Assembly: GCA_963921335.3 (NCBI GenBank) | Contig: CAWUFC020000002.1 | Span: 882,120 to 946,119, forward strand | Length of the DNA: 64,000 nucleotides | From: Halieaceae bacterium | GTDB taxonomy: Bacteria; Pseudomonadota; Gammaproteobacteria; Pseudomonadales; Halieaceae | Direction of reading: 5' to 3' | Shown here: in pieces, positions 1,089 to 33,149 of the stretch | How the letters are laid out: each line of letters begins with the position of its first letter | Numbering within the stretch: position 1 is the stretch's first letter | Made by a program: the position numbers and the translations under genes | The notes under the pieces: generated by a model | The model's database searches: none | What the model was told of the DNA's origin: nothing | The model's input: the letters and a program-made list of their open reading frames with translations, nothing else

Positions 1089-1979
1089 ATGAGTATGGAA
1101 CTCTGGACCTCTGCCACACCCAACGGTTGGAAGGTCACCATCATGGTGGAGGAACTGCGAGAGGCTGGCATTGAATTGCCCGAATTCAAGGTAGTTACAG
1201 TGGACCTGTTCAAGCGTGAGCAGTTCTCCGAGGCCTTCACTGCCATCAGCCCCAACCAGAAGATTCCTGCACTAAAAGATGGTGAGCTTACCCTGATGGA
1301 AAGTTGTGCCATTCTGCAATACCTCGGTGAAAAGTACCCCTCTCCCCTCCTGCCCTCCGATGAATCACGCTGGCAAGTACTACAGTGGTTGTTCTGGCAG
1401 GCCGCCGGGGTCGGCCCAACCTTCGGTAACAAACTGGCCTATACCCGGTATATGGATGATGTGCCCGAGGCTCAAAAAAGCCACCCACTGGAGCGCTTTA
1501 ATAACGAGGCGCAGCGTCTGCTGCGGGTGCTGAATCGTCAACTCGAAGGACAGGACTATATCTGCGGGAGCCATCTTACAATTGCGGATATCGCCTGCTA
1601 CCCCTGGATACGCGGCTGGAAGTGGAGCAAGGTGGATATCACCTCCCATGACAACGTCGTCGCCTGGGTGGATCGAGTGCGCGCAAGGCCCGCCGTAGAG
1701 CGAGGGCTCGCCTACGGCATGGCCTGCGACGAAATCGACTCCTGGAGCGAAGAGACCCGTAAGCGCTATGCCAAAGGTGGCGGCTCAATCGCCTCTAACG
1801 CGAGCATCGCCGCGGACGAGCAGAATTCCTTTTCTCGGCTAAAAATATCAGCTGAACAGAAAATCGTCTGCGTCCAGAGAGCTCGCCGTGCGCCAGACCA
1901 CGAACAGTTCATCATCTCCAAAATCGATGACGACACCCCGGTCCTGATCGACAAGGGTCAGTTCCCCAAAACCGCTTAG
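1089..1979 (+). CDS. glutathione S-transferase, Nu-class (YfcG/YghU-like) with extended C-terminal tail
   Basis: TPNGWKVTIMVEELREAG...ISPNQKIPAL...ESCAILQYLGEKY is typical of the YfcG/YghU GST N-domain. The last ~44 codons overlap the convergent adhesin gene. Confidence 0.8.
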   Translation: MSMELWTSATPNGWKVTIMVEELREAGIELPEFKVVTVDLFKREQFSEAFTAISPNQKIPALKDGELTLMESCAILQYLGEKYPSPLLPSDESRWQVLQWLFWQAAGVGPTFGNKLAYTRYMDDVPEAQKSHPLERFNNEAQRLLRVLNRQLEGQDYICGSHLTIADIACYPWIRGWKWSKVDITSHDNVVAWVDRVRARPAVERGLAYGMACDEIDSWSEETRKRYAKGGGSIASNASIAADEQNSFSRLKISAEQKIVCVQRARRAPDHEQFIISKIDDDTPVLIDKGQFPKTA

Positions 1980-4900
1980 CCCGAATGCACTGACATCAAT
2001 AAGCTCGTAGTCCGGCAGAAAATCCAGGATGGTGTCCTGGCCCCAACCGGGCGCAAACACAAAGGTATCGACACCCCGACCACCGGCGAGATAGTCAATG
2101 CCCGCTCCGCCAGCAAGAATATCGTTGCCAGACTCGCCAAATAGATGATCGCTGTAGAGGTTACCGGTAAGTGTGTCATTGCCGGCGCCGCCATAGAGTT
2201 CCGTCAGATCCAGCGCCGCACTGCTCAGGTTGTTATTGCCATCGTCTCCTAACCGGGGTTCTGCTATTTCTCCCAGATCCACCAGTATCTCGCCTGTCTC
2301 CAGGTCGGTTGATATCTCGACGCCATCGAATTGCAGGCTGCGGGACACGAAACCTGCCGAGCCTGGAATGGTGTAAAGACTGTCAATCTCCAAATCTTCC
2401 CAGTCGAGACGGCGATCGCCGTTACGGTCGCCAAGGTGGAAGGCGCTGAGGTCGATAATATCCTCGGCACCAAAGGTCCCAATTTCCAGGGAGGTCACGT
2501 CAGTTTCAATGCGAAAAATATCGACGCCTGGCCCGGCATCGGCACTCGCCTGATCCGCATCGATAAAGTGCACCCTGCCAGCAAACCCGCGATCAATATC
2601 AATGCCGTTCTGGCTGGGGGTTTCAAAATCTTCGAAAGATTCAAAGCTCAGATCGTATTGATCTTCAACCAGGGGAATATTGTGGCGAGTGATTTCAAGG
2701 CTACCCGTATACAGCGGTGGTGCATCGCTGGTGCCGGCAAAACCACCCAGGTCGGCTAGCGGGCCAAGCCAGGTGGTGTGCGTGTCGACAAATTCCATAT
2801 CGACCTGGGGCACGACATCCAGCCCCACATCAACATCCAGCACCGCCTCGGGCTGCACAATCACGTTATAGCCAATAACTCCGTCGCCATTGCTGTCGTG
2901 CTGGCTGGCGTTGGCTATCTGCACACCCACATCCGGATCGAAGGTATATTCGTGGCCGTCCTCCATGACCAGCACCGCGTCAAACGCGCCAAAATTCAGG
3001 CTGACGTCTTCCACTACGTCAAAGTCTGCACCGATGTCGTAGTCCATGAGCTCCAGATAGAACTGCACCTGGGCAATAAAGGGCAGACCGAGCGAGGTAG
3101 TGAACTCAAACGGGTTGATATCAGGCAGGCCAGGCGGCAGGCTGAGACCAACGGCTGCCAATCCGATTTTGGATACCAGGGCATCCATATCCAGCCCGAC
3201 ATAAGCGGCCTCTTCAATTAGCTTGCCACGGCGACCTGTGCTCTCTTCCAGGCGGGGCACATCAAAGCGGAAACCATCTGGCCAATCCAGATCAAACTCC
3301 AGAAATGACACATTCACTTCAGCGCCGTTATTGCCACGCAGGGCCTGAGTCAGGTCTGTGGCGTCGTAACTCTCGTCGCCGAGATCAATAGACAGGGGTA
3401 CACCATAGTAAACGATCGCCTCGGGCACGTCGGTGTTGTATTCAATTAGTGGGAACCGTCCGTCCTCATCAGCCCGACCGATTGCAGTCAGATCCGCACT
3501 GTCGAACTCCAGCGACTCACTGAATAATTCGACGGGCGTGTGGTACACATCCGGGCCAAAGTTATCCCAGCCGGCATCGAAACCCTGGTAATTCAGCGTT
3601 GCACTGGTGGAGAGATCCCAGTAACTGCCCAATCCAACCTGCAGATCTGGGAACTGGGTATCCACATAGCTACCCGTGTTAGTAATATCCAGCGCACCCA
3701 CTGACAGTCGGTCACTCACCGGGTTGTAGGAGACTTCTGCGTCGGACTGATATTGAAGGTGGGTCAGGATCTGGCCGCCAGTAAAATCCGCATAAACCGA
3801 CAGGGAGGTCTCCAGATCGATATGGCCTTCAGCATAAAAACGGTGCGCATTGGCCCAGCGATTGCCTTCAGCATCAAACTGCACAGCTGCACCGAGGTCG
3901 ATAAAGCCTGTGTCGAAGACCGTGCCGCTCTCATTGATATCAAGCAGATCAACAACCAGCTCATTCTCGGAGTTCAATAGGTCTATTGCAGCCTCCAGTG
4001 CGTGCTCAGCGAAATACTGGGTGCTGGAGAACTGCAGCCCGACGGATTCCGCGCTTGATCGCTCCACGCCACCGGCACGAATATTGGTGGCGATCACTTC
4101 CAGATCGAAGTCTTCCGAAGCACCCTCTGTAAACCGAACGGTGAACGTTTCGTCACCGCTAAAGTCCGTCACGCCATCATTCACAGACTGGCCACTGCTG
4201 TTAAGAATAGTCACGGAGTGAGGCAGATTGTTGAATGCCAGCGCAATGGAGTCGCTGGCATTATCCGTGTTGGCGGTAATGCGCAAGTCCAGCAATTCCA
4301 CGCTACCGCCATCCGATATAGCGAGACTCAGATCAGGCGCATCCAGGTCACCCACTATGGTGACGTCAATCAATTGCAGGTTACTGCCACCTGCCAGGTC
4401 ATCAAAATAAGCGGCATAGCGAATGGTTTCGGTTTCGTCCGGGCCCAGCCCGGCATAAGCAGTGAGATCAATAGATGCGGCCATATCGCCGGGCGTGACT
4501 GCAGGAGTTGAGCCATCGCTGGAAGATACCAAGTCGAGGCGATCCAACTGCAACAGCTCAGTCTCACCACGGTCTGGATCGATAATGGATCCCACCAGAC
4601 TAAAGTTAACCGGATCTGCACTGTAGCCAACCGCCACCTGGAAAGGCTCGGTTGCACCGGCGACATTGTTAACGCCGGTGATTTCGACCTCTGCGACCTG
4701 TTCCACCAGGCCACCAACACCGTCACTGATCTGGAAGTCGAAAGCCAGGTCCTGCACTTCGCCTTCGGGCAGGTAGGCAAAACCATTGCCCTCAATCACC
4801 AGCTCGGTGCCATCCAGATACCAGCCTTCGTTAATATCACTGCGCTCAGCCAGGCCGACCACCGACAAGGTGTCAGCGACATCCGCATCTGAAGCGCCCT

Positions 4901-6044
4901 GTAACAGATCAATCCGAATGTCGGTGCTGCTGTCATCAATAGCTTCAATGATTGGGCCAGTCACCACGGGCACATCGTTGGCACCGGGGATTTCGATGTC
5001 GACCTCGCGCTCTACACCGGCGCCCAGATCTACCAGCAGGGACAGGGTTTCACTTTCACCTGCAGAAATATGGGCAAACTCCTCTGGATCCACAGTGATG
5101 GTGTTAGCAGCGTCATCAAAACTCCAGCCCGCCACATAGACACCGTCGGAGGTTCTAGCGCCGACCGCATCGGGCGTAGAATCAATGTCGGTAACACCTT
5201 GCACCACATCGAGCACAAAGTTCGTGCCCAGGTCATCGACTGTGACTTCGATTGGGGCCGCTTCAGAGGGGTCGTCCACCCCAAATAAGCGAATAAAGCG
5301 CCAGCCATCAATGGTGCCACCGTTGCCATCGCCGGCAGTAAATCGCAGTTCGATGGTTTCGAACTCACCCGGCCCAATGCTATCCCACTGCGCCAGACCT
5401 GGATCAAAGGTAAGGGTACTACCGTCGACAGACCAACCACCGTGGCCACCCACATCGGTGATGTCACTGATTACCCGCAGCACATCGCTCTGGTCCGGGT
5501 CGACACCATTCTCCACCAGGTCAATGGTAATGGGGGCGTCACCCTCAGACACATCAGTGGAACCACCGGGAGCGCCGGTCGGCGCGTCATTTACACCCAC
5601 TATCACAAGGTTTGCGGTATGGCTCAGCGTAGCGTCGTACTGATCGGTGACATCGAAGCTCAGGGTCAGCGCTTCCTCTTCCCCTGCAGACAAATACTTA
5701 AACGTGCTGCGGGGCATTTCTATACCCTCAATACGGGTTAACCAGTCAGTAGTACTCACGGGATCAAAGCCCGAGATCACCTCACCAGTCCTGGTTACCG
5801 TGGCGACAATGTTCTCTATCGTGATGTCGGCATCATCATCGGGGTCGGTGATGAAGTTGGGTGTTATAGGTAAATAGGTAAACGCCGCACCCTCGTAAAC
5901 CCTGAAGCTCAGTGTTCCGGGCTGATTCAAATCGGGCGCGGAATTAGTGCCGGTGAATGTCACCGACGCAGTCTGCGGATAAGAGCCACCCCCCACCATC
6001 CCAGATGTTGTAGGAGAAGTTGTAGGTGACTTCTTCACCATCAT
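1848..6044 (-). CDS. giant RTX/cadherin-like repeat adhesin, C-terminal segment (T1SS substrate)
   Basis: 1398-aa ORF. It has ~100-aa repeat modules ending in GVNDAP/GANDVP. The C-terminal nonapeptide RTX repeats are GGAGNDTLTG..GESGNDILAGGAGIDYLAGGRGVDTFVF, followed by an acidic tail ending DADDFLFS. The true 5' end continues in another frame (see findings). Confidence 0.8.
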   Translation of the reverse strand: MMVKKSPTTSPTTSGMVGGGSYPQTASVTFTGTNSAPDLNQPGTLSFRVYEGAAFTYLPITPNFITDPDDDADITIENIVATVTRTGEVISGFDPVSTTDWLTRIEGIEMPRSTFKYLSAGEEEALTLSFDVTDQYDATLSHTANLVIVGVNDAPTGAPGGSTDVSEGDAPITIDLVENGVDPDQSDVLRVISDITDVGGHGGWSVDGSTLTFDPGLAQWDSIGPGEFETIELRFTAGDGNGGTIDGWRFIRLFGVDDPSEAAPIEVTVDDLGTNFVLDVVQGVTDIDSTPDAVGARTSDGVYVAGWSFDDAANTITVDPEEFAHISAGESETLSLLVDLGAGVEREVDIEIPGANDVPVVTGPIIEAIDDSSTDIRIDLLQGASDADVADTLSVVGLAERSDINEGWYLDGTELVIEGNGFAYLPEGEVQDLAFDFQISDGVGGLVEQVAEVEITGVNNVAGATEPFQVAVGYSADPVNFSLVGSIIDPDRGETELLQLDRLDLVSSSDGSTPAVTPGDMAASIDLTAYAGLGPDETETIRYAAYFDDLAGGSNLQLIDVTIVGDLDAPDLSLAISDGGSVELLDLRITANTDNASDSIALAFNNLPHSVTILNSSGQSVNDGVTDFSGDETFTVRFTEGASEDFDLEVIATNIRAGGVERSSAESVGLQFSSTQYFAEHALEAAIDLLNSENELVVDLLDINESGTVFDTGFIDLGAAVQFDAEGNRWANAHRFYAEGHIDLETSLSVYADFTGGQILTHLQYQSDAEVSYNPVSDRLSVGALDITNTGSYVDTQFPDLQVGLGSYWDLSTSATLNYQGFDAGWDNFGPDVYHTPVELFSESLEFDSADLTAIGRADEDGRFPLIEYNTDVPEAIVYYGVPLSIDLGDESYDATDLTQALRGNNGAEVNVSFLEFDLDWPDGFRFDVPRLEESTGRRGKLIEEAAYVGLDMDALVSKIGLAAVGLSLPPGLPDINPFEFTTSLGLPFIAQVQFYLELMDYDIGADFDVVEDVSLNFGAFDAVLVMEDGHEYTFDPDVGVQIANASQHDSNGDGVIGYNVIVQPEAVLDVDVGLDVVPQVDMEFVDTHTTWLGPLADLGGFAGTSDAPPLYTGSLEITRHNIPLVEDQYDLSFESFEDFETPSQNGIDIDRGFAGRVHFIDADQASADAGPGVDIFRIETDVTSLEIGTFGAEDIIDLSAFHLGDRNGDRRLDWEDLEIDSLYTIPGSAGFVSRSLQFDGVEISTDLETGEILVDLGEIAEPRLGDDGNNNLSSAALDLTELYGGAGNDTLTGNLYSDHLFGESGNDILAGGAGIDYLAGGRGVDTFVFAPGWGQDTILDFLPDYELIDVSAFGLSGFGELTLVDQDRGVVIDFGDDELFVVWRTASSLDADDFLFS

Positions 6045-7500
6045 TGAATGTGGCCTGAGTCGATGCCGGAATGGTCACGGTGTTGCCATCCAGCGTCCAG
6101 CCGGTCAGACCACCAGCCTCCGTCACACTTGAGGCTCTGATAAGAGCGCCGTCATCGACATCGGTGACACCCGCCACCAGATCGATTTCGAAGTCAGTGC
6201 CACTCTCGGTTTCAGCCAGCGTCTGGGGTACCGGAATCACCGGTGCAGTATTCACCCCATATACCTGCAAAAGCTTGGTGACGTTGATGCTGCTGCCCTG
6301 GGAGTCCTGAACCTGGTATTCAAACTGGTAGGTATCACGCACACCAAAGGGCATGGACGCTTTCGCTGCTAGATCAATCTCGATATCGGTACCGGACTGA
6401 ATCCAGTCAGTGAGACCGTTCGCTTCAGTGAGACCCACGATTTGCAACACTTCTCCCGTATCGGGATCCTCAATGCCTTCCAGCAGATCCAGGGAGTAGG
6501 TACCGCTGCCCTCCGCTACCTGTGGAAAGGGACCGGTGTAGCTCTGTTTGGGCACATCGTTCAGGCCATCTATGGTAACCACTGCAGTTAGCGGTGTATT
6601 GCCCCCAGCACCATCCATGGCAAAGTAGCTAAAGTTAAGCACCTGCTGTTGCCCGGCGATCAGTTGCTGCCAATAGTCAGCATCGATGAGCAGCTTATTG
6701 CCCGACAGGCTCCAACCATCATTCTGCGCGGCGTCTTCACCGAGACCGCCCACAGACAGGGTACCGCCTTCAGGATCTGACGAGTTCGCCAACAGGTCGA
6801 TTTCCACATCACTGTCGGGTTCGTCGATTGTCAGGTTGAGAGGCTCCCCCACCACCGGCTCGGAATTACTGCCCAGAATGTTGACGGTGGCTGTGCGACT
6901 AAGGCTGCCGCCCTGCCCATCTTCTACCTGATAACTGAAAGTCAGCACCTCGGTTTGACCGGAGGTCAGGGATGCGAATTGTGACAGGTACAATTCCAGG
7001 CTATTCCCCGACTGCCCGAAGCTAATATCGGGCTGACCACTACTGAGCGACAACCCTGTTACAGTGAGTGCATCACCTTCCGCGTCGTTGACACCACCGG
7101 TCAAATCGAGACTGTAAGTGGTGACATCTTCAAACCAGCTTTGCGTCAGGCCAGATCCGCCATCGGTCGGCGCGTCATTGACACCGGTCAGAGTCACCGC
7201 CAGGGTCTGGTCAACAGCAAGGCCAGAGCCATCCCTAATTTGATAGGTAAAACTCAGTAAATGTTGCTCAGCTTCCGCCAGATGCTGCCAGGCATCTGCT
7301 TCAATAACCAGCTCAGTGCCCTCAAGACGCCAGCCTGTAGTATCTCCAGCTTCCTCCAGGCCAATCACCGTTAAAGTGATACTCTCCGCGTCGTCAGCAC
7401 CTGCCAGCAAATCGATGCGATAGTCAGTATCGGATTCCGTCCAGGCATCTGCTAAAGGCGCTGTGACCGCCGGCGCAGTATTGTGGCCACCAATCCACAT
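5944..7500 (-). CDS. giant repeat adhesin, internal segment
   Basis: 518-aa ORF made of the same modules (..LTGVNDAPT.., ..ILGSNSEPVV.., ..IDGLNDVPK.., ..VYGVNTAPV..). It is in frame with ORF 7570..8409 across a TAG codon. Its last ~13 codons are out-of-frame read-on after the poly-G tract. Confidence 0.75.
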   Translation of the reverse strand: MWIGGHNTAPAVTAPLADAWTESDTDYRIDLLAGADDAESITLTVIGLEEAGDTTGWRLEGTELVIEADAWQHLAEAEQHLLSFTYQIRDGSGLAVDQTLAVTLTGVNDAPTDGGSGLTQSWFEDVTTYSLDLTGGVNDAEGDALTVTGLSLSSGQPDISFGQSGNSLELYLSQFASLTSGQTEVLTFSYQVEDGQGGSLSRTATVNILGSNSEPVVGEPLNLTIDEPDSDVEIDLLANSSDPEGGTLSVGGLGEDAAQNDGWSLSGNKLLIDADYWQQLIAGQQQVLNFSYFAMDGAGGNTPLTAVVTIDGLNDVPKQSYTGPFPQVAEGSGTYSLDLLEGIEDPDTGEVLQIVGLTEANGLTDWIQSGTDIEIDLAAKASMPFGVRDTYQFEYQVQDSQGSSINVTKLLQVYGVNTAPVIPVPQTLAETESGTDFEIDLVAGVTDVDDGALIRASSVTEAGGLTGWTLDGNTVTIPASTQATFNDGEEVTYNFSYNIWDGGGWLLSADCVGDIHRH

Positions 7501-7569
7501 GCCCAGCAGGAATGAGTTTACCCCACCGCGTCCGTCATCTACCGAAAAGCCAAACTGAAAAGTCTCGGA

Positions 7570-8409
7570 CTACCCCTCGACCATATAGGCGAGCGTCGAC
7601 ATATCCAGGGTGACTTCGCTGCCATCGAAGGTCCAACCGGTCTTGCCCGAGGTTTCATACACCCCGGATACCGTCAGCGGATCACCATTGCGATCAGTTA
7701 TGCCGTGAAGCAGATCGAGCACGGCGTCGCCATCGGCCTCGTCGTAGACCAGGTTACCGCTGCTAAAGCTTCTGTCAGGCAGATAGTTCTCGCCTTCCAC
7801 AGACAGATTGACTGCCAGGGTCAGAGCATCGCCGCGATCATCCACCACATTGAAGTGAATCAGGGAATCAGCGCTCTGGTTATAGCGCAGTGACTGGTAG
7901 CTGGGCAGGGTGGCATCAACAATGATGTAGGCGGGATTGAGGGGGTCCACCTGCCAGTTGGCATCACCACTGATCAGATTGGCGCTGGTCACGCTAAGGA
8001 TGCCGTTGGCATCGGGGTCGCTGACATAGTCCAGCGCATTAATGCGCTGAACACCGACTGCCGGCACTTCGATATTGATCGGATTTGCCGCCGCCTCTGG
8101 GCCGTCATTCACCCCGGTGATTGTGACAAAGGCTGTCTGGGGAGTGGGTCCACTGTAACCATCCCTAACCCCGTAACTGAATTCGAGGGTCTGGCTTTCC
8201 CCCTCGGATAGAAACTGCCAGGCCTCGCTGTCGAGCACAATCACATCATTGAGACCATCGCGATCGACGTGCCAGCCACCCGCGCCGGTATTTTCGATGA
8301 CCTCCCATTCCCTGATGTAGGGTGTTTGTCCGTCATCTACACCGCTGGAATAGGAAGCGACATCAACCACAATATCGCTATCGCTCTCCTGCACATCGAT
8401 ATACAGCAC
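7570..8409 (-). CDS. giant repeat adhesin, internal segment
   Basis: 279-aa ORF with the same module pattern (FSYGVRDGYSGPTPQTAFVTITGVNDGPE). The frame stays open and repeat-like upstream to ~8484. It ends at an in-frame TAG. Confidence 0.75.
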   Translation of the reverse strand: MLYIDVQESDSDIVVDVASYSSGVDDGQTPYIREWEVIENTGAGGWHVDRDGLNDVIVLDSEAWQFLSEGESQTLEFSYGVRDGYSGPTPQTAFVTITGVNDGPEAAANPINIEVPAVGVQRINALDYVSDPDANGILSVTSANLISGDANWQVDPLNPAYIIVDATLPSYQSLRYNQSADSLIHFNVVDDRGDALTLAVNLSVEGENYLPDRSFSSGNLVYDEADGDAVLDLLHGITDRNGDPLTVSGVYETSGKTGWTFDGSEVTLDMSTLAYMVEG

Positions 8410-8468
8410 TGGTTCTACGTCCGGCGGATCGTTTTCGCCATAAACACGCAGTGTGGCTTCACGATCCT

Positions 8469-11400
8469 CTACCCGGCCGTGGGGTCTGACACCTGGTAGG
8501 TGAAAACGTAATCCTGGCTGGTACCCGGCGCCATAAAAGCAAACTCGACGGGATCTACCAATAAGGAATTGCCTGTAATTGCAATACCAGCGTGACTGGG
8601 CCCGGTAACCGGTCCCACTGTCCAGGTATCGAGCCTGTCGTACTCGACGATATTTTTGGTCAGGTCGAATTCCTGGACCTCATCACCCCCGCGCACGGAA
8701 AAGAAGGGATCCGCCAGCACCACCGGGTCAGTGTCTTCGCCGACAACGGTAATGGTCAGCACACGGGGTGCACTGCCACCGTTTTTGTCGACCACATCGT
8801 AGACAAAGGTCAGGCTGGCTTCTTCGCCGAGGGAGAGTTTTTGAAAATCTGCCCAGGTCGATCCTTCAATCTCCAAATTATCGTTGTAACTTGGGTTCCG
8901 AAACCAACCGGTTGCTCCATATATCTCGCGCAGGTTTTCAATAGTGAATAAACTGACCTGATCCCAGTCCACATCGGTAACACCCTGGTCCAGTTCAATC
9001 GCGCTGAACGCTGAGGGCCGACTATCACTTTCCTGGAACACCAATTCGAGTGGCTCGGCTACCGGCAGGTCATTGACCCCATCAATAGTGAAATCCAGAA
9101 CTCGAAAAATGGAGTTAGGGCCTCCATCACTCACCTGATAGCTGAATACATAGCCCTCATCCCGTCCTGTATATAAAGGCTGCAACTCAGCCTGCGTAAG
9201 ATCGAGGGAGAACGTGGTGCCGTCAAAGCTCCAGTCGAGGTCTGCCGCCGCACCTGAGCCAGTGATATTAACGATTTCCAATACATCGTTAGCGTCGGCA
9301 TCTGTAGCCCCAATGGGAATGTCGTAGGTAAATACCCCGTCGTCTTCCACCAAATTGAAATAGGTGCGCTGATCTACCGTGCCGTCATCCACGGGATTGT
9401 CGTTGGTGCCTTCGATTCGAATAGTTGCTGTTTGTGGCACTGACAGGCCGTCGGTATCGGCGATGTCATAACTGAATTCCAGCGTGATGGAATCGCCATC
9501 ATCCAGTGCAGCATAATCGCGGGAATCCACAATTAGATCGCGGCCAGTCAGCTGCCAGCGGGTTTCCCCGTTCGCCTCGGTCAAATTGAGAATGGTCAGG
9601 TTGCCGTAATCTTCTGGATCACGAGCCCCATCGAGAAAATTGTTGGCACGACTAAAGAAATTACCCGACAGGGTGATATCAATCGGGTCACCTACATCCG
9701 GCGGCGAATTTATCCCTTCGATGATGACAGGCACTGTACCGCCACCGATTGCACCCCCAGCGTCGGTGTAGCTGAAACCGAACCTCAACTCTGTCTCGCT
9801 TCCACCACGTTGATTGGCGAAATAATCAGTGTTGATCGTCAGGACATCCCCATCAAGAGAATATGAGGAAGTGTGAAAAGTGGGGCCACCAAAATAAGCC
9901 TGAGTCAGTGAGGCATCGTCTCCGTCGGGATCGCTGATCAGTGTTTTCAGGTCGATGACAATATCACCCTGGGATTCCTGATAACGCTGCGGAGTGGAAT
10001 CTACCACTGGAGCAGTATTCACACCAATAATAGTGACAACAGCACTATGAGGAACCTGCGCTCCATTGTCATCGGCTACCCAATAGCTGAATTCAAGCTC
10101 CAGCGTCTCGCCTTCTGTGAGCGAGGTATAGTGGTTTGTGTCTACTCGAACGTAATCCCCGTCTATCTCCCAGCCCCCATGACCATTGGCCTCCTCAAGA
10201 CCAATAACCGACAAGGTGTCGCCGTCGGCTTCAGTGACATTGCCCAGCAGATAGTAAGGGAGGCCACCGGAACCTTCGTTCATGGTTCTACTGAGTGGGC
10301 CACTGACTACCGGCGGATTATTGGTTCCACCTACTGTTAGGGAAGCGGTCTGATCAACACTACCTCCAACACCGTCCTTAACCTGATAGCTGAAATTCAG
10401 TACCTGGTTTTCACCTGCAAGTAGCTCCGAATAAGCGTTCGCATCCAGTACCAACTGATTGCCCAGTAACTGCCAGCCATCCAAACCAGAATCTTCAACC
10501 AGACCCGCCACCTGCAGCACCGCGCCATCATCTACATCGGCAGCGCCCTGCAGCAGGTCGAAGGATTGTTCATCGGCACTGACTGGAGACTGGAATGTCA
10601 GCACTTCGTTCACAGTAGGAGGACTATTGGTACCGGCAATGGTGACGACTGCAGTTTGCTCTACTGATGCTCCCGAAGGGTCGCGGACAACATAAGTAAA
10701 TTGCAATTGTTCAGTCTCACCCGCCGGCAGATGGGCAAACTGGCTGGTGTCGACCTGGATATTCGGTAGCGCCGGGGTCCAACCGGATTTGTTGTTGATC
10801 TCTGCCAATTCGCTGACGGACAAAACATCGCCATCTGCATCACTCGCTCCGGCAAGCAAATCGACAAGGACCAGGCCCTGCCCGTCATCTGTCGCACGCG
10901 AAACAGCCGCGTCGACAACGGGTGGATTGTTTGAACCATCCACGGTCAGTGTTGCGGTTTGATCGACCGACCCGCCGAAATCGTCCTCAATGCGATAAGA
11001 AAAATTCAGTTGCTGGGTTTGACCTGCCAACAAACTGGAAAAGGCGTTGGCATCTAGCTGAAGCTGGTTGCCAACCAGTTGCCAACCGCCCAATCCTCCG
11101 GTCTCGGCAATGCTGACAACCTGCAATATGCTGTTGTCATCTACATCGCTGGCACCGGCCAGCAGGTCAAACTGTTGGGCAACACTGCTGACTGGCGCAG
11201 ACAAATTCAAAGCGGCGCTAACTGTCGGTGCGCTATTGGTACCGGTAATAGTCACCAACAGGGTCTGGGGAACTACACCGCCCTCGCCATCTGAAACCTG
11301 ATAGTTGAATGCAAGCTCAATGGTTTCACCCGCAGTAAGACTGGCGAAATCGGTTCCGACAATCTGCAATGTGTTGCCATCCTGAACCCACCCGGTCTTC

Positions 11401-13199
11401 CCGGTGGCTTCGATCAATCCAGCAACTGCTAGCTGATCGCCATCGGCGTCGCTGGCAGTCTCCAATAAATCGATCGACACCAAACCCTGATCATCGCTGA
11501 GTGCAGCATTAAGCGCAGCGGCCACTTCAGGCACCTGGTTAGGCGGTATTACGACAACCGGCGGAGCCGGCGCCGGCGCGGGCGCCGGAGTGGGTTCAGG
11601 CTCGGGAGCTGTGGGTTCCGGCTCCGGCTCAGGGGCCGGCGGCGGTTGTACAATATCGCCAACTTCATCAGCCGCATCTTCCACCCGCTGCTGCAGTTCG
11701 CCTTCTTCAACCGCTGCCAGTAGATCGCTGATATCTCCGGTGCTGGCAGCATTTTCCAATTGCTCTTCAAGCTGTTCGCTGACCACCTGAACCGCCGCAA
11801 TATCGATCAGGCCACCTGCCCCACCGGCACTGGCATCAATTTCAGCGACCGCCTGATTCAGCTCTGTAATTGCCTCGGCAGCTCCCGAGGCCAGATCGCG
11901 CACTGCCGCCTGTGCTGACTCATCAACGACCTCGACTGCGGTTAATACGACTTGTTCAATTGTGGCTGTGTTGGACAGATCCAACACGACTCCAGGTTCA
12001 TCAGCGCTATTTGCGATAGCACTACTAAGAGCGTCGTATACCACCTCCGCAGAGGCACTTTCGCTCACTCCGTCTTCGCTACCTGCGAGCAAGGCTGCAG
12101 TCTGGCTGACCAGGGTATTCACCTGCACCGCGGCTTTTTGAACTTCCAGCGCCTGCTCGACATCAGCGGCGGAATTATTCGGGTCACTCGCTGCAGCAAT
12201 CGGGTCTAAATTGAGCAGATCCACTTCAGCATCAATACCAAGTGCAGAATTGACCTGCTGCACGGCAGCCTCAGCGGACACTTCGCCACTCCGAGTGAGG
12301 TTTTCAACCAGGGTTGTCAGTGGGTTCACCACTGTCGCACCGGCGGGTGCGGTCATGCGACCTTCAAAAGCCTGACCTGTGGCGATATCGGTACCGCCAA
12401 ACATCACCAGGGAGCCGAAGTCGGCGTTGTCACCAAAATCGAAGTTTCCGGCACTGTCCGTGGTAACACTGACCTCATTCGGGTCCAGAACACCGTCGCC
12501 ATCGGTGTCGATAAACACAGTGGCGCCGCTGATATAACCGTCTACCACGACTCCATCAACGCTAAGGCCAGGCACATCGACACCACTGTAGGCATCACTG
12601 GCTAACAACTGGGTGATGAGCGCAATGGGGTCGGTGGCCAGGGCTTGTGCCAGATCGCCAATGCTCGGTACCTGCTCCACCAGGCCGTGATACTGCAGTA
12701 CCACCTTGATTTGCTCTGCCTTCTCGGCGGTGAATTCTTCTGAATAGGCGAATCCCAGCAACAGCTTGGCCCGCTCCATGCCCGCTTCGAGCTGCCCCAG
12801 CAAGTAGGCGGTACCGGCTTCATCGGGCTCTCGCTTGAGCACGTTTTGATATACCTGCTGCAGAAACGCACCGTCTTCGGCGGCAGCAAACAGCGATTGG
12901 AATTCTTCTGAATCAGCAAAAGCCGCGGCAATGCTCTCTACTGAACGCCCTGCCTGGTGCTGTTCAACCCAGAAACGCAACCCATCAGCATCGGGAATAC
13001 GATCAAAAGCGGCAAAGTACAGGCGTGCGATGGGCGCTACACGGGCGGCAAACTCAGGGCTATCAAGGAATTCAGAAGTAATATCAGCGGCGTTTCGCCG
13101 ACCGCTGGCCAGTTCTTCGACCCAGAATGCGACGCCTTCGCCCTCAGCCTGCCTGCCCAGCAGACGCTGGTATAACTGCTCTATGAACTCTTTGGACAC
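8469..13199 (-). CDS. giant repeat adhesin, N-terminal segment (DUF4214 repeats, Pro/Ala/Glu linker, >10 tandem ~100-aa modules)
   Basis: 1576-aa ORF. The N-terminus has two DUF4214-like units (LYQRLLGRQAEGEGVAFWVEEL.., QNVLKREPDEAGTAYLLGQL). The linker is PPPAPEPEPEPTAPEPEPTPAPAPAPAPP. Then come repeated modules of the form ..DLLxGAxDxDGD.L.V..L.E...GW...G..L.....F..L.AGE...L.F.Y.V.D..G....QT..VTI.GTN..P. Confidence 0.8.
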   Translation of the reverse strand: MSKEFIEQLYQRLLGRQAEGEGVAFWVEELASGRRNAADITSEFLDSPEFAARVAPIARLYFAAFDRIPDADGLRFWVEQHQAGRSVESIAAAFADSEEFQSLFAAAEDGAFLQQVYQNVLKREPDEAGTAYLLGQLEAGMERAKLLLGFAYSEEFTAEKAEQIKVVLQYHGLVEQVPSIGDLAQALATDPIALITQLLASDAYSGVDVPGLSVDGVVVDGYISGATVFIDTDGDGVLDPNEVSVTTDSAGNFDFGDNADFGSLVMFGGTDIATGQAFEGRMTAPAGATVVNPLTTLVENLTRSGEVSAEAAVQQVNSALGIDAEVDLLNLDPIAAASDPNNSAADVEQALEVQKAAVQVNTLVSQTAALLAGSEDGVSESASAEVVYDALSSAIANSADEPGVVLDLSNTATIEQVVLTAVEVVDESAQAAVRDLASGAAEAITELNQAVAEIDASAGGAGGLIDIAAVQVVSEQLEEQLENAASTGDISDLLAAVEEGELQQRVEDAADEVGDIVQPPPAPEPEPEPTAPEPEPTPAPAPAPAPPVVVIPPNQVPEVAAALNAALSDDQGLVSIDLLETASDADGDQLAVAGLIEATGKTGWVQDGNTLQIVGTDFASLTAGETIELAFNYQVSDGEGGVVPQTLLVTITGTNSAPTVSAALNLSAPVSSVAQQFDLLAGASDVDDNSILQVVSIAETGGLGGWQLVGNQLQLDANAFSSLLAGQTQQLNFSYRIEDDFGGSVDQTATLTVDGSNNPPVVDAAVSRATDDGQGLVLVDLLAGASDADGDVLSVSELAEINNKSGWTPALPNIQVDTSQFAHLPAGETEQLQFTYVVRDPSGASVEQTAVVTIAGTNSPPTVNEVLTFQSPVSADEQSFDLLQGAADVDDGAVLQVAGLVEDSGLDGWQLLGNQLVLDANAYSELLAGENQVLNFSYQVKDGVGGSVDQTASLTVGGTNNPPVVSGPLSRTMNEGSGGLPYYLLGNVTEADGDTLSVIGLEEANGHGGWEIDGDYVRVDTNHYTSLTEGETLELEFSYWVADDNGAQVPHSAVVTIIGVNTAPVVDSTPQRYQESQGDIVIDLKTLISDPDGDDASLTQAYFGGPTFHTSSYSLDGDVLTINTDYFANQRGGSETELRFGFSYTDAGGAIGGGTVPVIIEGINSPPDVGDPIDITLSGNFFSRANNFLDGARDPEDYGNLTILNLTEANGETRWQLTGRDLIVDSRDYAALDDGDSITLEFSYDIADTDGLSVPQTATIRIEGTNDNPVDDGTVDQRTYFNLVEDDGVFTYDIPIGATDADANDVLEIVNITGSGAAADLDWSFDGTTFSLDLTQAELQPLYTGRDEGYVFSYQVSDGGPNSIFRVLDFTIDGVNDLPVAEPLELVFQESDSRPSAFSAIELDQGVTDVDWDQVSLFTIENLREIYGATGWFRNPSYNDNLEIEGSTWADFQKLSLGEEASLTFVYDVVDKNGGSAPRVLTITVVGEDTDPVVLADPFFSVRGGDEVQEFDLTKNIVEYDRLDTWTVGPVTGPSHAGIAITGNSLLVDPVEFAFMAPGTSQDYVFTYQVSDPTAG

Positions 13200-13333
13200 G
13201 CAGGATTCCCGAAACTGTTTTTCTTATTGCTAACTTTTATAGCATATGGACATCGCAGGGGCTATTTGAGCAACACCCATGACCACCAAACTATGGCTGA
13301 TACCAACACACAGTGGGCTCTGCAGATTTATGC

Positions 13334-14191: not shown

Positions 14192-14426
14192 AGGTATGTG
14201 TTCCCGTGAGCGCTGCCCGTGGTAGTGACTACAGCCGATTGAGTCAATCAGAGGCCGAGGCCAATGCAGCATAAATAATACTTTCGTATTAATTATTACG
14301 GAGGGCAGGCACTTATTCAAGAGTCAAAAAGTATCGGAAAAATAAATCTGCGGAGTTCGCGAAAAAGGAAACAATCGCTTATTCTGGAGTTAGAAAAATA
14401 AACATAGTCCGCGTTTAAGGGGTAGC

Positions 14427-16964
14427 ATGCGACAAGGCAGTCACAGCTCGTTTTCTCTGGGTTCAGTGTTTCTGCTCGTGACATTGCTGAGCGCCTGCAA
14501 ACATCCGCTCGAGATCCAGGGCGAAGGCGACATCGTGGAGCGGCTATATGGCGAACGCGGTTGTACGCTTCAACAATTTCGAAGCGGGGCTGAAGCCTGC
14601 ACTGAAAACACCGTCATTGATACCGCGTATGTCGCCTCTTATCAGGCTGTCGCAGCACCGGGCTGGGTGTTCTCCCACTGGGAAGGCACCAAGTGCAATA
14701 CAGTTACCCCAGAGGGCTATTGCGAATACGATGTCGGCCAATTCTGGATAGACGCAACCAACGAATACTATCCCGACTCCACGGTACCCTCACTGGTCGC
14801 CGTCTTTGTTGTGGATGCACCCACTTACTTTGAAGAAGCGATCGCAGAGCCAGTGATAGCTGATCGCTGCGTAAATTGTCACGTTGAGGGCGGTGTCGCT
14901 GGCAATACGCGCATGGTCTATCGCAGCGGCGACAGCGCCAGCGTGGTGGAGCACAACTACGGGGTTTTAAGTGATTTTCTCAACGCCGATAGCGGCATTC
15001 CTGAACTGGTTTTGTCGAAAGTTCGTGGGGTCAGCCATGGCGGTGGTGTGCAGTTAGCTGCAGGTGAGGAAGACTACGAAGCACTGAACGAGTTTATAAA
15101 GCGAGAGATCGGCTGCTTCAACTGTGATGACGTTGCTGGCGGCGATTTCTTTGCAGGTGTAACAATGGCCGACGCCCAGGCCACTCTGCGCAGGGCTTCC
15201 CTGCTGCTTGCCGGACGACTTCCCACAGCCAGCGAGCTCAACAGCGTAAGAAATGCCAATGACGCGAAGCTACGCAAAGCGGTTCTAAAGCTGATGCAAG
15301 GTGATGGCTTTCACCAATTCTTGCTGCGCAGCGCCAATGATCGCTTACTGACAGATGCATTTTTGAGCAATTCGTCTGGGGTCGACTTAAGACCCGCAAA
15401 CCTGGCCCACGCACAATATCCTGAGTTGTCCAATCGCGCCTATGAGGCTACTAATGGCGATCTATCGTCAGGTGCACCCGACCAATTCTGGCGATGGGTC
15501 AATGAAATGGGCTACGGGATGGCGCGCGCGCCGCTGAAGCTCATTGCCCACGTGGTTGAGAATAATCGACCTTATACCGAGATCTTGACTGCTGACTATG
15601 TCATGCAAAATTCCGCGCTGGCTGAAATCTACAGATCGAATATTAACTTTAGTAACGACAGCTATAGCAACATGAAGTCTGGCCCGAATCGCGGGCAAAT
15701 ACTGCTTGATGAAGAACTTGAGATTGAGGAAGGTGCCGCAGGTGCCAGCAGGGTATTAAGCCATTCTGGCTTTATCGATTATCCGATTACCGGCGTTCTA
15801 AATACCTCAGCCTTTCTCTCCCGTTATCCGACAACCGAAACCAATCGCAATCGTGCCAGGGCTCGCTGGACGTATTACCATTTCCTAGGCGTCGACATTG
15901 AGAATTCCGCTTCTCGCACCACTGACCCAGAGGCGTTGGCGGATACAAACAACCCTACTCTGAATAATCCGGCCTGTACCGCCTGTCACGTGATTATGGA
16001 CCCAGTTGCGGGCGCATATCGTGATTACGGGGTGGACAGCTATTATCTGGAAAGTTATGGCGGCATAGACTCCCTCCCAGACCAGTACAAATACCCTGAA
16101 ACCAGGCTCGCAATCGACGGCGAGACGTTTGACGTCCAATCCGCCAATGGCAGCACCCGTGACTACACAGCTCGGGTATCAGTCGAAGCTGGTAACAGGC
16201 AGATTGCTTTCCAATTTAATAATGCCAAGCCCGGCTTTGAGAATGCCGAGGGCTTCCCAAGAGCAGTAGGCGTGACACAGATCACAGTCAAGTTTGGCTC
16301 GCGAGTGCCGTTCTCAGAGCAAGGTATCAATCTTGGAAATCTTGAAAATGCCAGTGCTTCAGGCTCCAACGTATTTGACAATTTGTACGCTTTTTACGGC
16401 GATGGAGCCCTACTCACCTTCCCGGTAAACGTACCAGGCGACGGCGAACTGACGATCACCGCCACCGCCCTCGCTTCGGTCCTCGATGACGGCATCAATC
16501 CGTCTTTCTCGATTGGGGTTACCGAAGTAGAGCCTACGCTGTATGAAGAAGGAGATCGGTGGTTCCGCGACATGCTGCCTCCTGGTTTTAACGATCGGAA
16601 CACGCCAGATTATGAAGACAGCCTGCGCTGGCTGGCCGAGCATATTGCTAACGACCCGAGATTTGCGCAAGCCACTGTGCGCTTTTGGTGGCAGTCGCTG
16701 ATGAAAGCGGAACCGCTGCAAGCTCCTGCCGTTAGGAGTGATCGCTTCTTCGATCAGAAACTGCGTGCCTTCGAGCAGCAGAATGCAGATATTGGAGCAC
16801 TGGCAAGCGATTTCCGTAATGGTTACAAGCTCAAGGAATTACTGGCTGACATGGTGATGTCGCCCTGGTTCAGAGCGAATGGGTCACTCAGGCTCTCAGC
16901 AAAGAGCGTCAGACGGAATTGGAAGGAATCGGTTTCAGAGCCCTGCTCACGCCAGAAGAATTGA
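14427..16964 (+). CDS. lipoprotein with two CXXCH heme-binding motifs, Planctomycete-type PSCyt/PSD (DUF1588/DUF1592-like) family, N-terminal 4/5
   Basis: The lipobox is LLSAC. CVNCH and CTACHVIMDPVAGAY motifs resemble PSCyt domains. This is the usual upstream partner of DUF1501 genes. The frame breaks at GGG 16881-16883. Confidence 0.6.
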   Translation: MRQGSHSSFSLGSVFLLVTLLSACKHPLEIQGEGDIVERLYGERGCTLQQFRSGAEACTENTVIDTAYVASYQAVAAPGWVFSHWEGTKCNTVTPEGYCEYDVGQFWIDATNEYYPDSTVPSLVAVFVVDAPTYFEEAIAEPVIADRCVNCHVEGGVAGNTRMVYRSGDSASVVEHNYGVLSDFLNADSGIPELVLSKVRGVSHGGGVQLAAGEEDYEALNEFIKREIGCFNCDDVAGGDFFAGVTMADAQATLRRASLLLAGRLPTASELNSVRNANDAKLRKAVLKLMQGDGFHQFLLRSANDRLLTDAFLSNSSGVDLRPANLAHAQYPELSNRAYEATNGDLSSGAPDQFWRWVNEMGYGMARAPLKLIAHVVENNRPYTEILTADYVMQNSALAEIYRSNINFSNDSYSNMKSGPNRGQILLDEELEIEEGAAGASRVLSHSGFIDYPITGVLNTSAFLSRYPTTETNRNRARARWTYYHFLGVDIENSASRTTDPEALADTNNPTLNNPACTACHVIMDPVAGAYRDYGVDSYYLESYGGIDSLPDQYKYPETRLAIDGETFDVQSANGSTRDYTARVSVEAGNRQIAFQFNNAKPGFENAEGFPRAVGVTQITVKFGSRVPFSEQGINLGNLENASASGSNVFDNLYAFYGDGALLTFPVNVPGDGELTITATALASVLDDGINPSFSIGVTEVEPTLYEEGDRWFRDMLPPGFNDRNTPDYEDSLRWLAEHIANDPRFAQATVRFWWQSLMKAEPLQAPAVRSDRFFDQKLRAFEQQNADIGALASDFRNGYKLKELLADMVMSPWFRANGSLRLSAKSVRRNWKESVSEPCSRQKN

Positions 16965-17569
16965 ATGCAAAGGTGCAGTCCGCGACTGGCTATTACTGGG
17001 GCCAATTCTTCAACCCCCAAATACGCGACAACGAAAGTCTTTACTACACAAACCTACAGGACTCGGTAAAGGTGCTTTATGGCGGCATTGACTCCTTTAC
17101 AACCACGGACCGCGCACGTCAGTTAAACAGCCTGATGATGAACATAGTCTCTCGACAAGCCAACCAGATGGCATGCCATTCGGTGGTACTGGATTTTCAG
17201 AAAAACAAATCACGAAGACTGCTTTTTACAAAGGTCGAGAAGACGATGACGCCGGACGCTAACGAGACTGCCGTGCGCAATCAGTTACAACACCTGCACC
17301 TGCAGTTGCTCGGTGAAAGCCTCTCCACGTCGAGCGCTGAACTTGAGGAAAGCTATCAACTGCTTCGTGAGCTCTGGCAAAATCGCAAGTCGCTAGGCCA
17401 AACCTGGGCCCAGGCCTGGCCTCAGGAAAACGAGTGTAATGTGCCTATTGAAGGCTGGTGGGATGACCCAAAGCATGAGCAGGCGATGACCGATCCGGCG
17501 TCCATGCTCAGCGCGTGGTCAGACATGCTGGTCTACTTCTTCAACGACTACAAGTTTGTACACGAGTGA
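16919..17569 (+). CDS. C-terminal continuation of the PSCyt/PSD-like protein (separate frame)
   Basis: This frame is open upstream to ~16860 and reads ..VTQALSKERQTELEGIGFRALLTPEEL. Adding one G at 16881-16883 joins it to the upstream ORF, giving ~1047 aa in total. Confidence 0.55.
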   Translation: MEGIGFRALLTPEELNAKVQSATGYYWGQFFNPQIRDNESLYYTNLQDSVKVLYGGIDSFTTTDRARQLNSLMMNIVSRQANQMACHSVVLDFQKNKSRRLLFTKVEKTMTPDANETAVRNQLQHLHLQLLGESLSTSSAELEESYQLLRELWQNRKSLGQTWAQAWPQENECNVPIEGWWDDPKHEQAMTDPASMLSAWSDMLVYFFNDYKFVHE

Positions 17570-18879: not shown

Positions 18880-18981
18880 TCCCCGCCAACTCCCCTACCC
18901 TTTGGTTGGTTCTGTGTTGCGTATACAGACGAACTGAGCATAGGGGAAGTTCGGCCGCTGCATTACTTTGAGCAGGACCTT

Positions 18982-19821
18982 GTGATGTATCGATCCGAGC
19001 GTGGGACCGTGCATGTTGCGGAAGCCTATTATCCGCACCTTGGTGCGCACCTCGGACATGGAGGCAAGCTTGCAGGAGATCGCATCAGTTGTCCTTTTCA
19101 TGGCTGGGAATTTGATCCCGATGGCCGCTGTGGCGCCATCCATTATGCAAAGAAACTGCCAAAGAAATCCCAACAGCCGAACTTCCTGTTCCAGTTTCCT
19201 GTCCACGAGGCCAACGGCATAATCTGGGTATGGTTTCACCCTGACAGGATCGAACCGCTGTTCGACATGGAAGACTTGGGTGAGGTGCTGGACGATAGTT
19301 GGAGTGAAGAATATGAGCGACGCGCCTGGACGATAAATGTGGCATTACAGGAGGCATCCGAGAATGCAGTAGACAATGCGCACTTTCTGTTTGTCCACAA
19401 CGCTTACGGCATGCCGCGTCCAGAAGTCAGCTTTGATGGCCACCAACGCTCGGCGGTGATAAATGGCGGTCTGGCAGGGGAAAGTAAAGATCGTAATTTT
19501 CAGTTCACCATGCATACGCATAACGATGGTCCCGGGGTCGCTTTTCAACACTTCACCGGAAGTTTTGACAGTTTTCTGTTTGGCATGGTGACCCCGATTA
19601 CCAGGGAGCAAATGGTTTTGCGATTCGCTTTCGCTACCAAGCAAAGTTTGAGTGCCGAGGAAAGGCTAATTGTTGACGCTTATGTCGGTGAGGTCATCAA
19701 ACAGGTAGAGCAGGATATTCCTATATGGGAGAACAAACGCTATGAACCAGATCCCACACTTTGCGATGGCGATGGTCCTATCGCGCAGTTCAGGAAATGG
19801 TTCACCCGGTTTTACCCATAG
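18982..19821 (+). CDS. Rieske-type non-heme iron oxygenase (KshA/cholesterol-7-desaturase-like), apparently defective
   Basis: The sequence has YPHLGAHLGHGGKLAGDRISCPFHGWEFDPDGRC, a Rieske C-x-H-x17-C-x2-H motif with Tyr in place of the first Cys. The mononuclear iron motif NAVDNAHFLFVHN is present. Domain homology (FGWFCVAYTDELSIGEV) continues upstream of the first canonical start codon. Confidence 0.6.
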   Translation: MMYRSERGTVHVAEAYYPHLGAHLGHGGKLAGDRISCPFHGWEFDPDGRCGAIHYAKKLPKKSQQPNFLFQFPVHEANGIIWVWFHPDRIEPLFDMEDLGEVLDDSWSEEYERRAWTINVALQEASENAVDNAHFLFVHNAYGMPRPEVSFDGHQRSAVINGGLAGESKDRNFQFTMHTHNDGPGVAFQHFTGSFDSFLFGMVTPITREQMVLRFAFATKQSLSAEERLIVDAYVGEVIKQVEQDIPIWENKRYEPDPTLCDGDGPIAQFRKWFTRFYP

Positions 19822-29341: not shown

Positions 29342-29457
29342 ATCAGCCCAGACGCCTACTTCAGAGGACTGATAGCTGGCGGTATCGGTACCGCTGCCAC
29401 CCTCTAGTGCATCGTCTCCAAGACCGCCATCGAGAGTATCGTCTCCAGAGTCACCAA

Positions 29458-31191: not shown

Positions 31192-31200
31192 AATAGCGAC

Positions 31201-33057: not shown

Positions 33058-33149
33058 GGAAGCTCCCCCCGAAGGCCAAATCACCTGGTTAAATAATAGT
33101 CAGCACTATATGTTTTGGCCAGCAGATGACACGCGTAAGCGCCAATCCA

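Follow-up and report, generated by a model that had tools for sequence, protein, structure and literature searches.

A giant cadherin-repeat RTX gene of the type-1-secreted class, broken into four open reading frames in a Halieaceae genome assembly

RTX adhesins of the LapA, MpIBP and FrhA type share a three-region architecture (PMC6650083). They are proteins of megadalton-class size in which a long tandem extender of Ca2+-dependent immunoglobulin (Ig)-like or cadherin-like domains is followed by a distinct region near the C-terminus, and then by RTX repeats and a type-1 secretion tail (PMC6650083). A gene with all of these features lies in the assembly of a Halieaceae bacterium (GenBank GCA_963921335.3), in a stretch of 64,000 nucleotides (nt) of contig CAWUFC020000002.1 (positions 882,120 to 946,119 of the forward strand; hereafter the window). 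Unlike the described adhesins, it has three DUF4214 units at its head and no recognised retention module, and it is broken. Four consecutive minus-strand open reading frames (ORFs), here numbered pieces 1 to 4, are pieces of one ancestral giant gene, cut by two frameshifts and one stop codon (Table 1). The gene is that of a giant type-1-secreted cadherin-repeat RTX protein of known class, with a DUF4214 head. Taken as a whole, our best explanation, which we hold at a probability of about 0.6, is that one former giant type-1-secreted gene has become a real pseudogene within a wider decay of the genome.

In their stop-to-stop extents, pieces 1 and 2 overlap in different frames, as do pieces 3 and 4; pieces 2 and 3 share one frame and are separated solely by the TAG of lesion 2. 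The pieces were joined with an X at each lesion and no base altered, giving 3,785 residues, and a repeat profile was iterated on the joined sequence alone. This profile recovers 23 tandem copies of a module between residues 562 and 2953 of the 3,785, at 51-104 bits each. Every junction (X at 1577, 1878 and 2405) falls inside a single full-length copy, aligned from profile position 4 or 5 to 94 of 94 and scoring 68-89 bits. Since the module register is unbroken through all three junctions, the four frames were formerly one frame of ~3,785 codons. Three frame-disrupting lesions, each within a complete conserved module, make the gene a pseudogene as assembled.

An earlier note, made from the letters of the window, had described the same ~100-residue module in all four ORFs with its phase kept across the junctions, and the 23-copy profile bears this out. 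The note had further placed the N-terminus in the first ORF only, and the RTX repeats and secretion-type tail in the last only. Domain scans agree, confining DUF4214 to piece 1 and the RTX block and tail to piece 4 (Pfam, NCBIfam). Domain searches could also have found the segments to be unrelated; they are related, and the proposal of one gene of ~3,780 codons stands, with a continuous register, a head at the 5' end only, RTX repeats and tail at the 3' end only, and no internal ribosome-binding site. The note was likewise right that only the first 1,576 residues can be translated as written, in a product without the secretion signal.

Lesion 1 reads '...gac ccc acg gcc ggg TAG agg atc...', and the -1 frame resumes the module as ...VEDREATLRVYGENDPP; the TAG at 8469-8471 ends piece 1 just beyond it. 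Lesion 2 reads, in frame, '...gtc gag ggg TAG tcc gag act...'. In the module alignment this TAG sits on a conserved G-[E/Q] column, so a single change from a Glu or Gln codon would account for it. At lesion 3, which reads '...gat ggt ggg ggg tgg...', the +1 frame resumes the module as ...GGSYPQTASVTFTGTNSAP. The gene starts at GTG 13199, the sole start codon after the upstream in-frame stop. Direct reading of the sequence before the nominal internal starts (GTG 8409, ATG 7500 and ATG 6044) found no Shine-Dalgarno-like sequence. A promoter and terminator scan gave counts without a clear excess over shuffled sequence, and it placed no site ahead of the internal starts.

Table 1. Positions of the broken gene, its parts and lesions, and the other damaged genes (window coordinates unless a contig is named)
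Feature	Position	Strand	Remarks
Whole former gene	1848..13199	(-)	~3,785 codons, with X joining the pieces at each lesion
Piece 1 (listed ORF)	8469..13199	(-)	Stop to stop 8469..13223
Piece 2 (listed ORF)	7570..8409	(-)	Stop to stop 7570..8679
Piece 3 (listed ORF)	5944..7500	(-)	Stop to stop 5944..7569
Piece 4 (listed ORF)	1848..6044	(-)	Stop to stop 1848..6074
Lesion 1	8472..8484	(-)	Frameshift at GGG 8472-8474 / CCCC 8481-8484, inside module 10; downstream frame -1
Lesion 2	7570..7572	(-)	TAG in frame within module 13, at a column of Glu or Gln in the other modules
Lesion 3	5989..5994	(-)	Frameshift in a G6 run inside module 18; downstream frame +1
Three DUF4214 units	12720..13199	(-)	Residues ~1-160
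Rest of conserved N-terminal head	11649..12719	(-)	Residues ~161-517; DxDxDG-type loop, Ala/Val-rich stretch
Pro-rich PAPEPEP linker	11535..11648	(-)	Residues 518-555
23 cadherin-like beta-sandwich modules	4347..11516	(-)	~100 residues each, ending G-x-N-D/S-x-P; array spans all three lesions
714-residue orphan C-terminal region	2205..4346	(-)	Without Pfam or PDB match; first ~110 residues predicted Ig-like
Sub-domain of orphan region	2607..3149	(-)	Residues ~400-580 of the region; weakly conserved, E down to 4e-11
Short RTX block	2058..2195	(-)	About four or five GGxGxDxUx nonapeptides
C-terminal tail	1851..2057	(-)	Aligns to serralysin and PueA/B (type-1-secreted) profile ends
Second giant RTX/cadherin gene	24476-33099	(-)	~2,880 codons, three pieces
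Heme-lipoprotein gene	14394-17569	(+)	Weak PSD4/PSCyt3-type matches; frame change near GGG 16881-16883
Rieske/KshA-like oxygenase gene	18880-19821	(+)	Open frame follows the DUF1501 stop directly and has no start codon before 18982
mutS	G000:C1:1754643-1757244	(-)	Three frames, two one-base frameshifts

The conceptual product contains 17% Asp plus Glu, 3% Lys plus Arg and no cysteine. A strongly acidic, cysteine-free composition is usual for type-1-secreted RTX proteins. Pfam assigns DUF4214 (three stretches, 122 bits), Big_9 and Cadherin_4/5 to piece 1, cadherin-like families to pieces 2 and 3, and Cadherin_4/5 and HemolysinCabind to piece 4. Taken together, Pfam and NCBIfam place Cadherin_4, Cadherin_5, Big_9, tandem-95 and VCBS repeats in each of the four pieces. 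The repeat families are matched above their curated cut-offs: in piece 1, Big_9 scores 116 bits (cut-off 23.6), Cadherin_4 98 (25.1), Cadherin_5 96 (26.5) and tand_rpt_95 116 (90). The modules thus form an extender of 23 tandem Ig-like beta-sandwich repeats. An AlphaFold2 (AF2) model of module 1, for which the other intact modules served as the alignment, is a beta sandwich with a predicted local distance difference test score (pLDDT) of 93.9. Its top PDB matches are extracellular cadherin (EC) domains of protocadherins and cadherins and the RTX-adhesin extender of Aeromonas hydrophila (6xi1, TM 0.61); it also matches a fragment of Vibrio cholerae FrhA. The Foldseek E-values are modest, at about 1e-3.

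Two counts in the earlier note need correction: there are 23 modules rather than 25-30, and DUF4214 occurs three times rather than twice. The note's A-B-A'-B' super-repeat is present: modules 2 and 4 are 62% identical and modules 1 and 3 49%, against a mean of 28%. Its supposed recent origin is not supported, as the gene contains no DNA repeat above 70% identity over 94 nt, and modules so diverged at the DNA level point to an old duplication. Misassembly by repeat collapse was considered separately and ruled out, the modules being too diverged at the DNA level.

Downstream of the modules, the note had expected a large beta-rich region. The region exists, but it is a stretch of 714 residues with no Pfam or PDB match, of which only the first ~110 are predicted to be Ig-like; this low-confidence fold suggests one further divergent Ig-like domain at the start of the region. 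An AF2 model of the C-terminal 832 residues has a mean pLDDT of 50.8, too poor for a fold search. Searches of PDB sequences were empty and no Pfam family matched, so no ligand-binding domain is recognised in the 714 residues. An exhaustive HMMER search of 1.84 billion representatives with this region gave weak matches only, with E no better than 4e-11. They cover a sub-domain at residues ~400-580, and lie at the C-termini of other cadherin-repeat proteins. The sub-domain corresponds to a ~180-residue domain with no Pfam family (2607-3149 (-); also in P0125, P0126, P0130 and others), in which the motifs TLEDG...NASSHD.NGDGVI.Y are conserved and which recurs at the C-termini of cadherin-repeat proteins.

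The protein ends, as in the RTX adhesins, with RTX nonapeptides and then a type-1 secretion signal. HemolysinCabind scores 40 bits (cut-off 23) at residues 1294-1329 of piece 4, and three nonapeptides at residues 1295-1339 of the same piece match the GGxGxDxUx pattern. The alignment of the tail to the serralysin and PueA/B profile ends reaches position 615 of 616. The final 44 codons of the giant gene share 132 nt (window 1848-1979) with a convergent gene for a YghU-like glutathione S-transferase (GST; 1089..1979).

The designation 'RTX adhesin', used in the earlier note, fits the overall architecture only. No LapA-type retention module was recognised, in scans made without a model specific to such modules, and no LapG gene or linked type-1 secretion genes were found. 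The N-terminus consists of three DUF4214 units and a conserved 360-residue region. The LapG protease (Peptidase_C93, PF06035) has no match in the whole genome. Type-1 secretion genes were not found in the window, where the neighbours encode the GST, a luciferase-like monooxygenase and a heme lipoprotein; two PrtD-type genes for type-1 ATP-binding cassette (ABC) transporters score above the family cut-off on contig C1. With its RTX-adhesin features present and no LapG gene in the genome, the gene fits the overall architecture of these adhesins and not Lap-type retention and release. It further differs from them in having no adjoining secretion genes and no known ligand-binding domain.

The intact gene would have encoded an acidic surface protein of giant size (~390 kDa) that lacks cysteine, binds calcium and leaves the cell by type 1 secretion. 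No N-terminal signal peptide would be expected; the chain would enter, with its uncleaved C-terminal tail first, an export channel formed by ABC, membrane-fusion and outer-membrane components encoded elsewhere in the genome. Extracellular Ca2+ would then cause the RTX block to fold and would make the 23 cadherin-like modules rigid, forming a long stalk that would keep the 714-residue C-terminal region, presumably ligand-binding, away from the cell. The conserved DUF4214 head would be exported last.

Other giant genes of this kind are present in the genome. At C2:1268811-1289142, on the contig that includes the window, an open cadherin-repeat gene of 4,489 residues is followed by an ABC exporter gene and then by two broken genes. 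The first of these matches its paralogue only through a TAG at about 1286332-1286334, and the second is shifted at an A9 run. If the first broken gene encodes the membrane-fusion partner, this export system may be damaged too. Further uninterrupted giant ORFs are found at C1:363428-378274 (4,948 residues, with DUF4347, Big_9, Cadherin_4 and Big_13) and C1:2341630-2354436 (4,268 residues). As several giant ORFs are open, large surface proteins are multiple in this genome and possibly redundant.

The organism is placed in Halieaceae, its RpoB being 88% identical to that of Parahaliea aestuarii, and it stands alone in its genus among the genomes compared. No orthologue of the giant gene, split or intact, was found in 31 close genomes or 301 genomes of the family, nor in the contig collection searched for related loci, all of which gave only domain-level RTX and cadherin matches. 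A word-index search with the C-terminal region among 5.8 billion proteins (length class 2,082-6,624 residues) again gave domain-level matches and no orthologue, and exact look-up placed the pieces on a single contig. The nearest homologue, one ORF of 1,834 residues, is in the nearest related genome (G001:C4, locus L189 2219-7723). Like the present gene it has cadherin modules, the C-terminal sub-domain (29% identity) and an RTX tail (42% over the last 100 residues), carried there in a single open frame; it is not an orthologue, having few modules, another neighbourhood and no DUF4214. Its N-terminus consists of RTX repeats and a GSGSGK tract, as in the second giant gene of the window.

The 520-residue head is more widely shared. 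It is 46% identical over 97% of its length to a 2,178-residue protein of Marinobacterium arenosum (P0149), and 40% identical over 91% to a 2,259-residue protein of Massilia eurypsychrophila (P0150), starting at residue 13 of the latter, which according to its precomputed Pfam list also has Ig-like domains and RTX repeats. Both proteins are large and DUF4214-headed and contain the whole head; they differ in being shorter and uninterrupted, in having other repeats (FG-GAP/VCBS, Big_5/Big_13), and in lacking similarity to the 714-residue region. The part of the head beyond the DUF4214 units (residues ~161-517) shares 37-46% identity with the N-termini of large RTX or Ig-repeat proteins that are uninterrupted. 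One homologue lies at residue ~205 of an uninterrupted cadherin/RTX protein of 3,651 residues, and the part of the head after DUF4214 recurs near the N-terminus of many cadherin/RTX proteins of 3,300-4,950 residues. Head and RTX C-terminus therefore co-occur in single proteins elsewhere.

The giant gene is not the only damaged gene in the window. The second giant RTX/cadherin gene is interrupted at 31201-31203 by a TAG in frame ('gca gag ggg TAG gtc'). Its frame also shifts at a run of seven G (29475-29481), across which the RTX nonapeptide register carries on. The heme-lipoprotein gene reads ...ELLADMVMSPWFRA in one frame and ...VTQALSKERQTELEGIGF... in the next. In the Rieske/KshA-like oxygenase, the sequence is Y-P-H where the C-x-H motif is needed, so that Tyr replaces the first cluster-ligand Cys. 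Judged by profile coverage, the other ~30 genes of the window look intact.

Damage of the same kind was sought genome-wide among 3,844 called ORFs by all-against-all BLASTP, taking adjacent same-strand pairs that jointly match one paralogue; this paralogue-anchored test was used because a plain list of same-frame ORF pairs was too noisy. Of the 38 such pairs, 11 are separated by a frameshift and 27 by an in-frame stop (16 TAG, 7 TAA, 4 TGA). In all 27 of the latter, one alignment continues across the stop, and 12 also survive a strict filter that asks for 35% identity or more in both flanking blocks of 20 residues and no more than two gaps, giving at least 12, and up to 27, conserved genes with an in-frame stop. 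Several of the 11 frameshift pairs break at G6, C6 or A9 runs. Split pairs are denser on contig C2 at about 830-1,075 kilobases (kb), the stretch that includes the window. Only 35% of ORFs have a full-length paralogue, so the true count of broken genes must be higher.

One of the damaged genes is mutS, whose one-base shifts lie near 'tttcacgcatggga' and 'tacgcctgcaag'; on C1 the two sites fall near 1757100-1757140 and 1754890-1754920. Its longest open frame here has 752 residues; in 25 of 25 relatives the gene is open, at 854-995 residues. Judged by length only, the frames of mutL (628 residues) and fpg (272 residues) look whole. Loss of mismatch repair would raise run-length and point mutation of the kind seen, and we infer a link between the decay of these genes and the damage to mutS. 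Pseudogenes of bacterial mutator lineages deficient in mismatch repair resemble the present case in their frameshifts at runs and nonsense changes, in several hits per dispensable gene and in a damaged mutS; here, in contrast, a mutator phenotype is only putative and an artefact is possible. ARAGORN also reports a transfer RNA (tRNA) for Asn with anticodon ATT beside a normal GTT copy, and this copy may be another point change in the genome.

It is highly improbable that the four ORFs are separate genes merely sharing a repeat family. They have been deposited as separate proteins in public sets, but each junction cuts a module that continues in the next frame, pieces 2 to 4 have neither a ribosome-binding site nor an N-terminal domain of their own, and pieces 1 to 3 have no secretion signal. 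We also regard it as very unlikely, if a little less so, that the breaks are functional, with G tracts serving as slipped-strand phase-variation switches, or frameshifting and read-through yielding some full-length protein. Surface adhesins are classic phase-variable genes, two of the lesions lie at G runs, and a G7 run marks the break in the second giant gene. Such a mechanism would nevertheless need three different recoding events (-1, read-through and +1) on one messenger RNA; neither shift site has an X XXY YYZ slippery heptamer, and slippage cannot reverse a TAG. Moreover, at G3 and G6 the tracts are short, and they are located in the middle of the gene; G/C runs of at least six bases occur about once per 7.7 kb genome-wide, with no enrichment here. 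Read-through fares no better, as in-frame stops elsewhere use all three stop codons against many residues and there is no suppressor tRNA. Stop-codon reassignment or suppression in general was rejected likewise: TAG, TAA and TGA align to E, Q, W, Y, F, K and other residues, and a scan of the genome for tRNAs found no suppressor, the only candidate being tRNA-Sec. Stops opposite so many residues, with no suppressor tRNA, do not amount to a code change.

The more serious alternative, which we consider possible though clearly the less probable, is that the gene is intact in the organism and that the breaks here and nearby are consensus errors (miscounted G runs, GC compressions or a miscalled base) in a part of the assembly with low coverage or quality. 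Several observations weigh against our own reading in this way. The lesions rest on one consensus sequence, and no second assembly or orthologue was found. All five lesions of the two giant genes are at G runs (GGG-TAG three times, G6 and G7), and the frameshifts in mutS and the lipoprotein gene resemble single missing bases in GC-rich context; in the window, every frameshift is at a G/C run or resembles a single missing G or C, and three stops come after GGG. Base-calling compressions or miscalled homopolymers would leave the same signature. The four damaged genes are confined to 33 kb, as might be expected if the assembly is poor locally, and the remaining 31 kb of the window appears clean; the flanks of the lesions are otherwise well kept, with full-scoring modules. 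At a contig end, one of the rRNA operon copies departs from the others by one indel, which shows that this assembly does contain indel errors. A relative-rate comparison is ambiguous, with 41 unique changes in mutS of the present genome against 20 in G001 and 54 in another relative (G004), and 34, 44 and 38 in rpoB. As to function, the secretion and adhesive role of the product would follow from its domains only. On the other side, lesions cluster by gene, with three in the present gene, two in the second giant gene and two in mutS, and at the rate seen across the genome, chance would be unlikely to place two hits in mutS (2.6 kb). Three other giant ORFs of 12.8-14.8 kb, two of them scanned and found to encode cadherin-repeat proteins, have 44-48 G/C runs of at least four bases each and are unbroken, where ~5 breaks would be expected at the per-run rate of the present gene. 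The two rRNA copies have no mismatch over 7.1 kb; the five copies of a 1,016-nt insertion sequence are identical to one another, as are the two of tuf (1,225 nt). With no mismatch in ~13 kb of repeats expected to be identical, the substitution error rate looks low, yet stops of the substitution type are common, affecting a dozen or more conserved genes. This control is weakened by the contigs ending inside an rRNA operon, as repeat copies may be co-assembled. Finally, the Rieske gene, with Tyr exactly at the cluster-ligand Cys and no start codon, looks like decay and not noise. On this sequence evidence, we judge the lesions to be probably real in the organism. In the same assembly, C1 at its start and C2 at its end share 1,119 overlapping nt within an rRNA operon, so that this joint is closable, and a 3.3-kb tandem duplication (C1:308790-315425) has two mismatches.

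If the lesions are real, the gene would have been hit three separate times, by two one-base length changes at G runs and one change from a sense codon to TAG. The remaining N-terminal fragment of 1,576 residues has neither the RTX block nor the secretion signal and could not be exported. With at least two other giant cadherin-repeat genes open, its function may be redundant.

In annotation, the four 'hypothetical proteins' should be merged into a single disrupted giant gene, and the second giant gene (24476-33099) treated likewise. The combination of a DUF4214 head, a cadherin-like stalk, an orphan C-terminal region and an RTX tail is a further variant among the type-1-secreted megaproteins, and gives the poorly understood DUF4214 head a defined position within them. 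The genome-level pattern is more useful than the gene itself: with dozens of interrupted conserved genes and a split mutS, this is either a natural mutator strain or a sequence that needs polishing, and statistics of gene content or pseudogenes from the assembly should await a read-level check. We tentatively entertain, a little short of favouring it, the possibility that the broken adhesin is a symptom of a free-living marine lineage of Halieaceae that has truly lost mismatch repair and, as a natural mutator, is shedding by point and run-length mutation its large and costly surface-protein genes along with other accessory genes.

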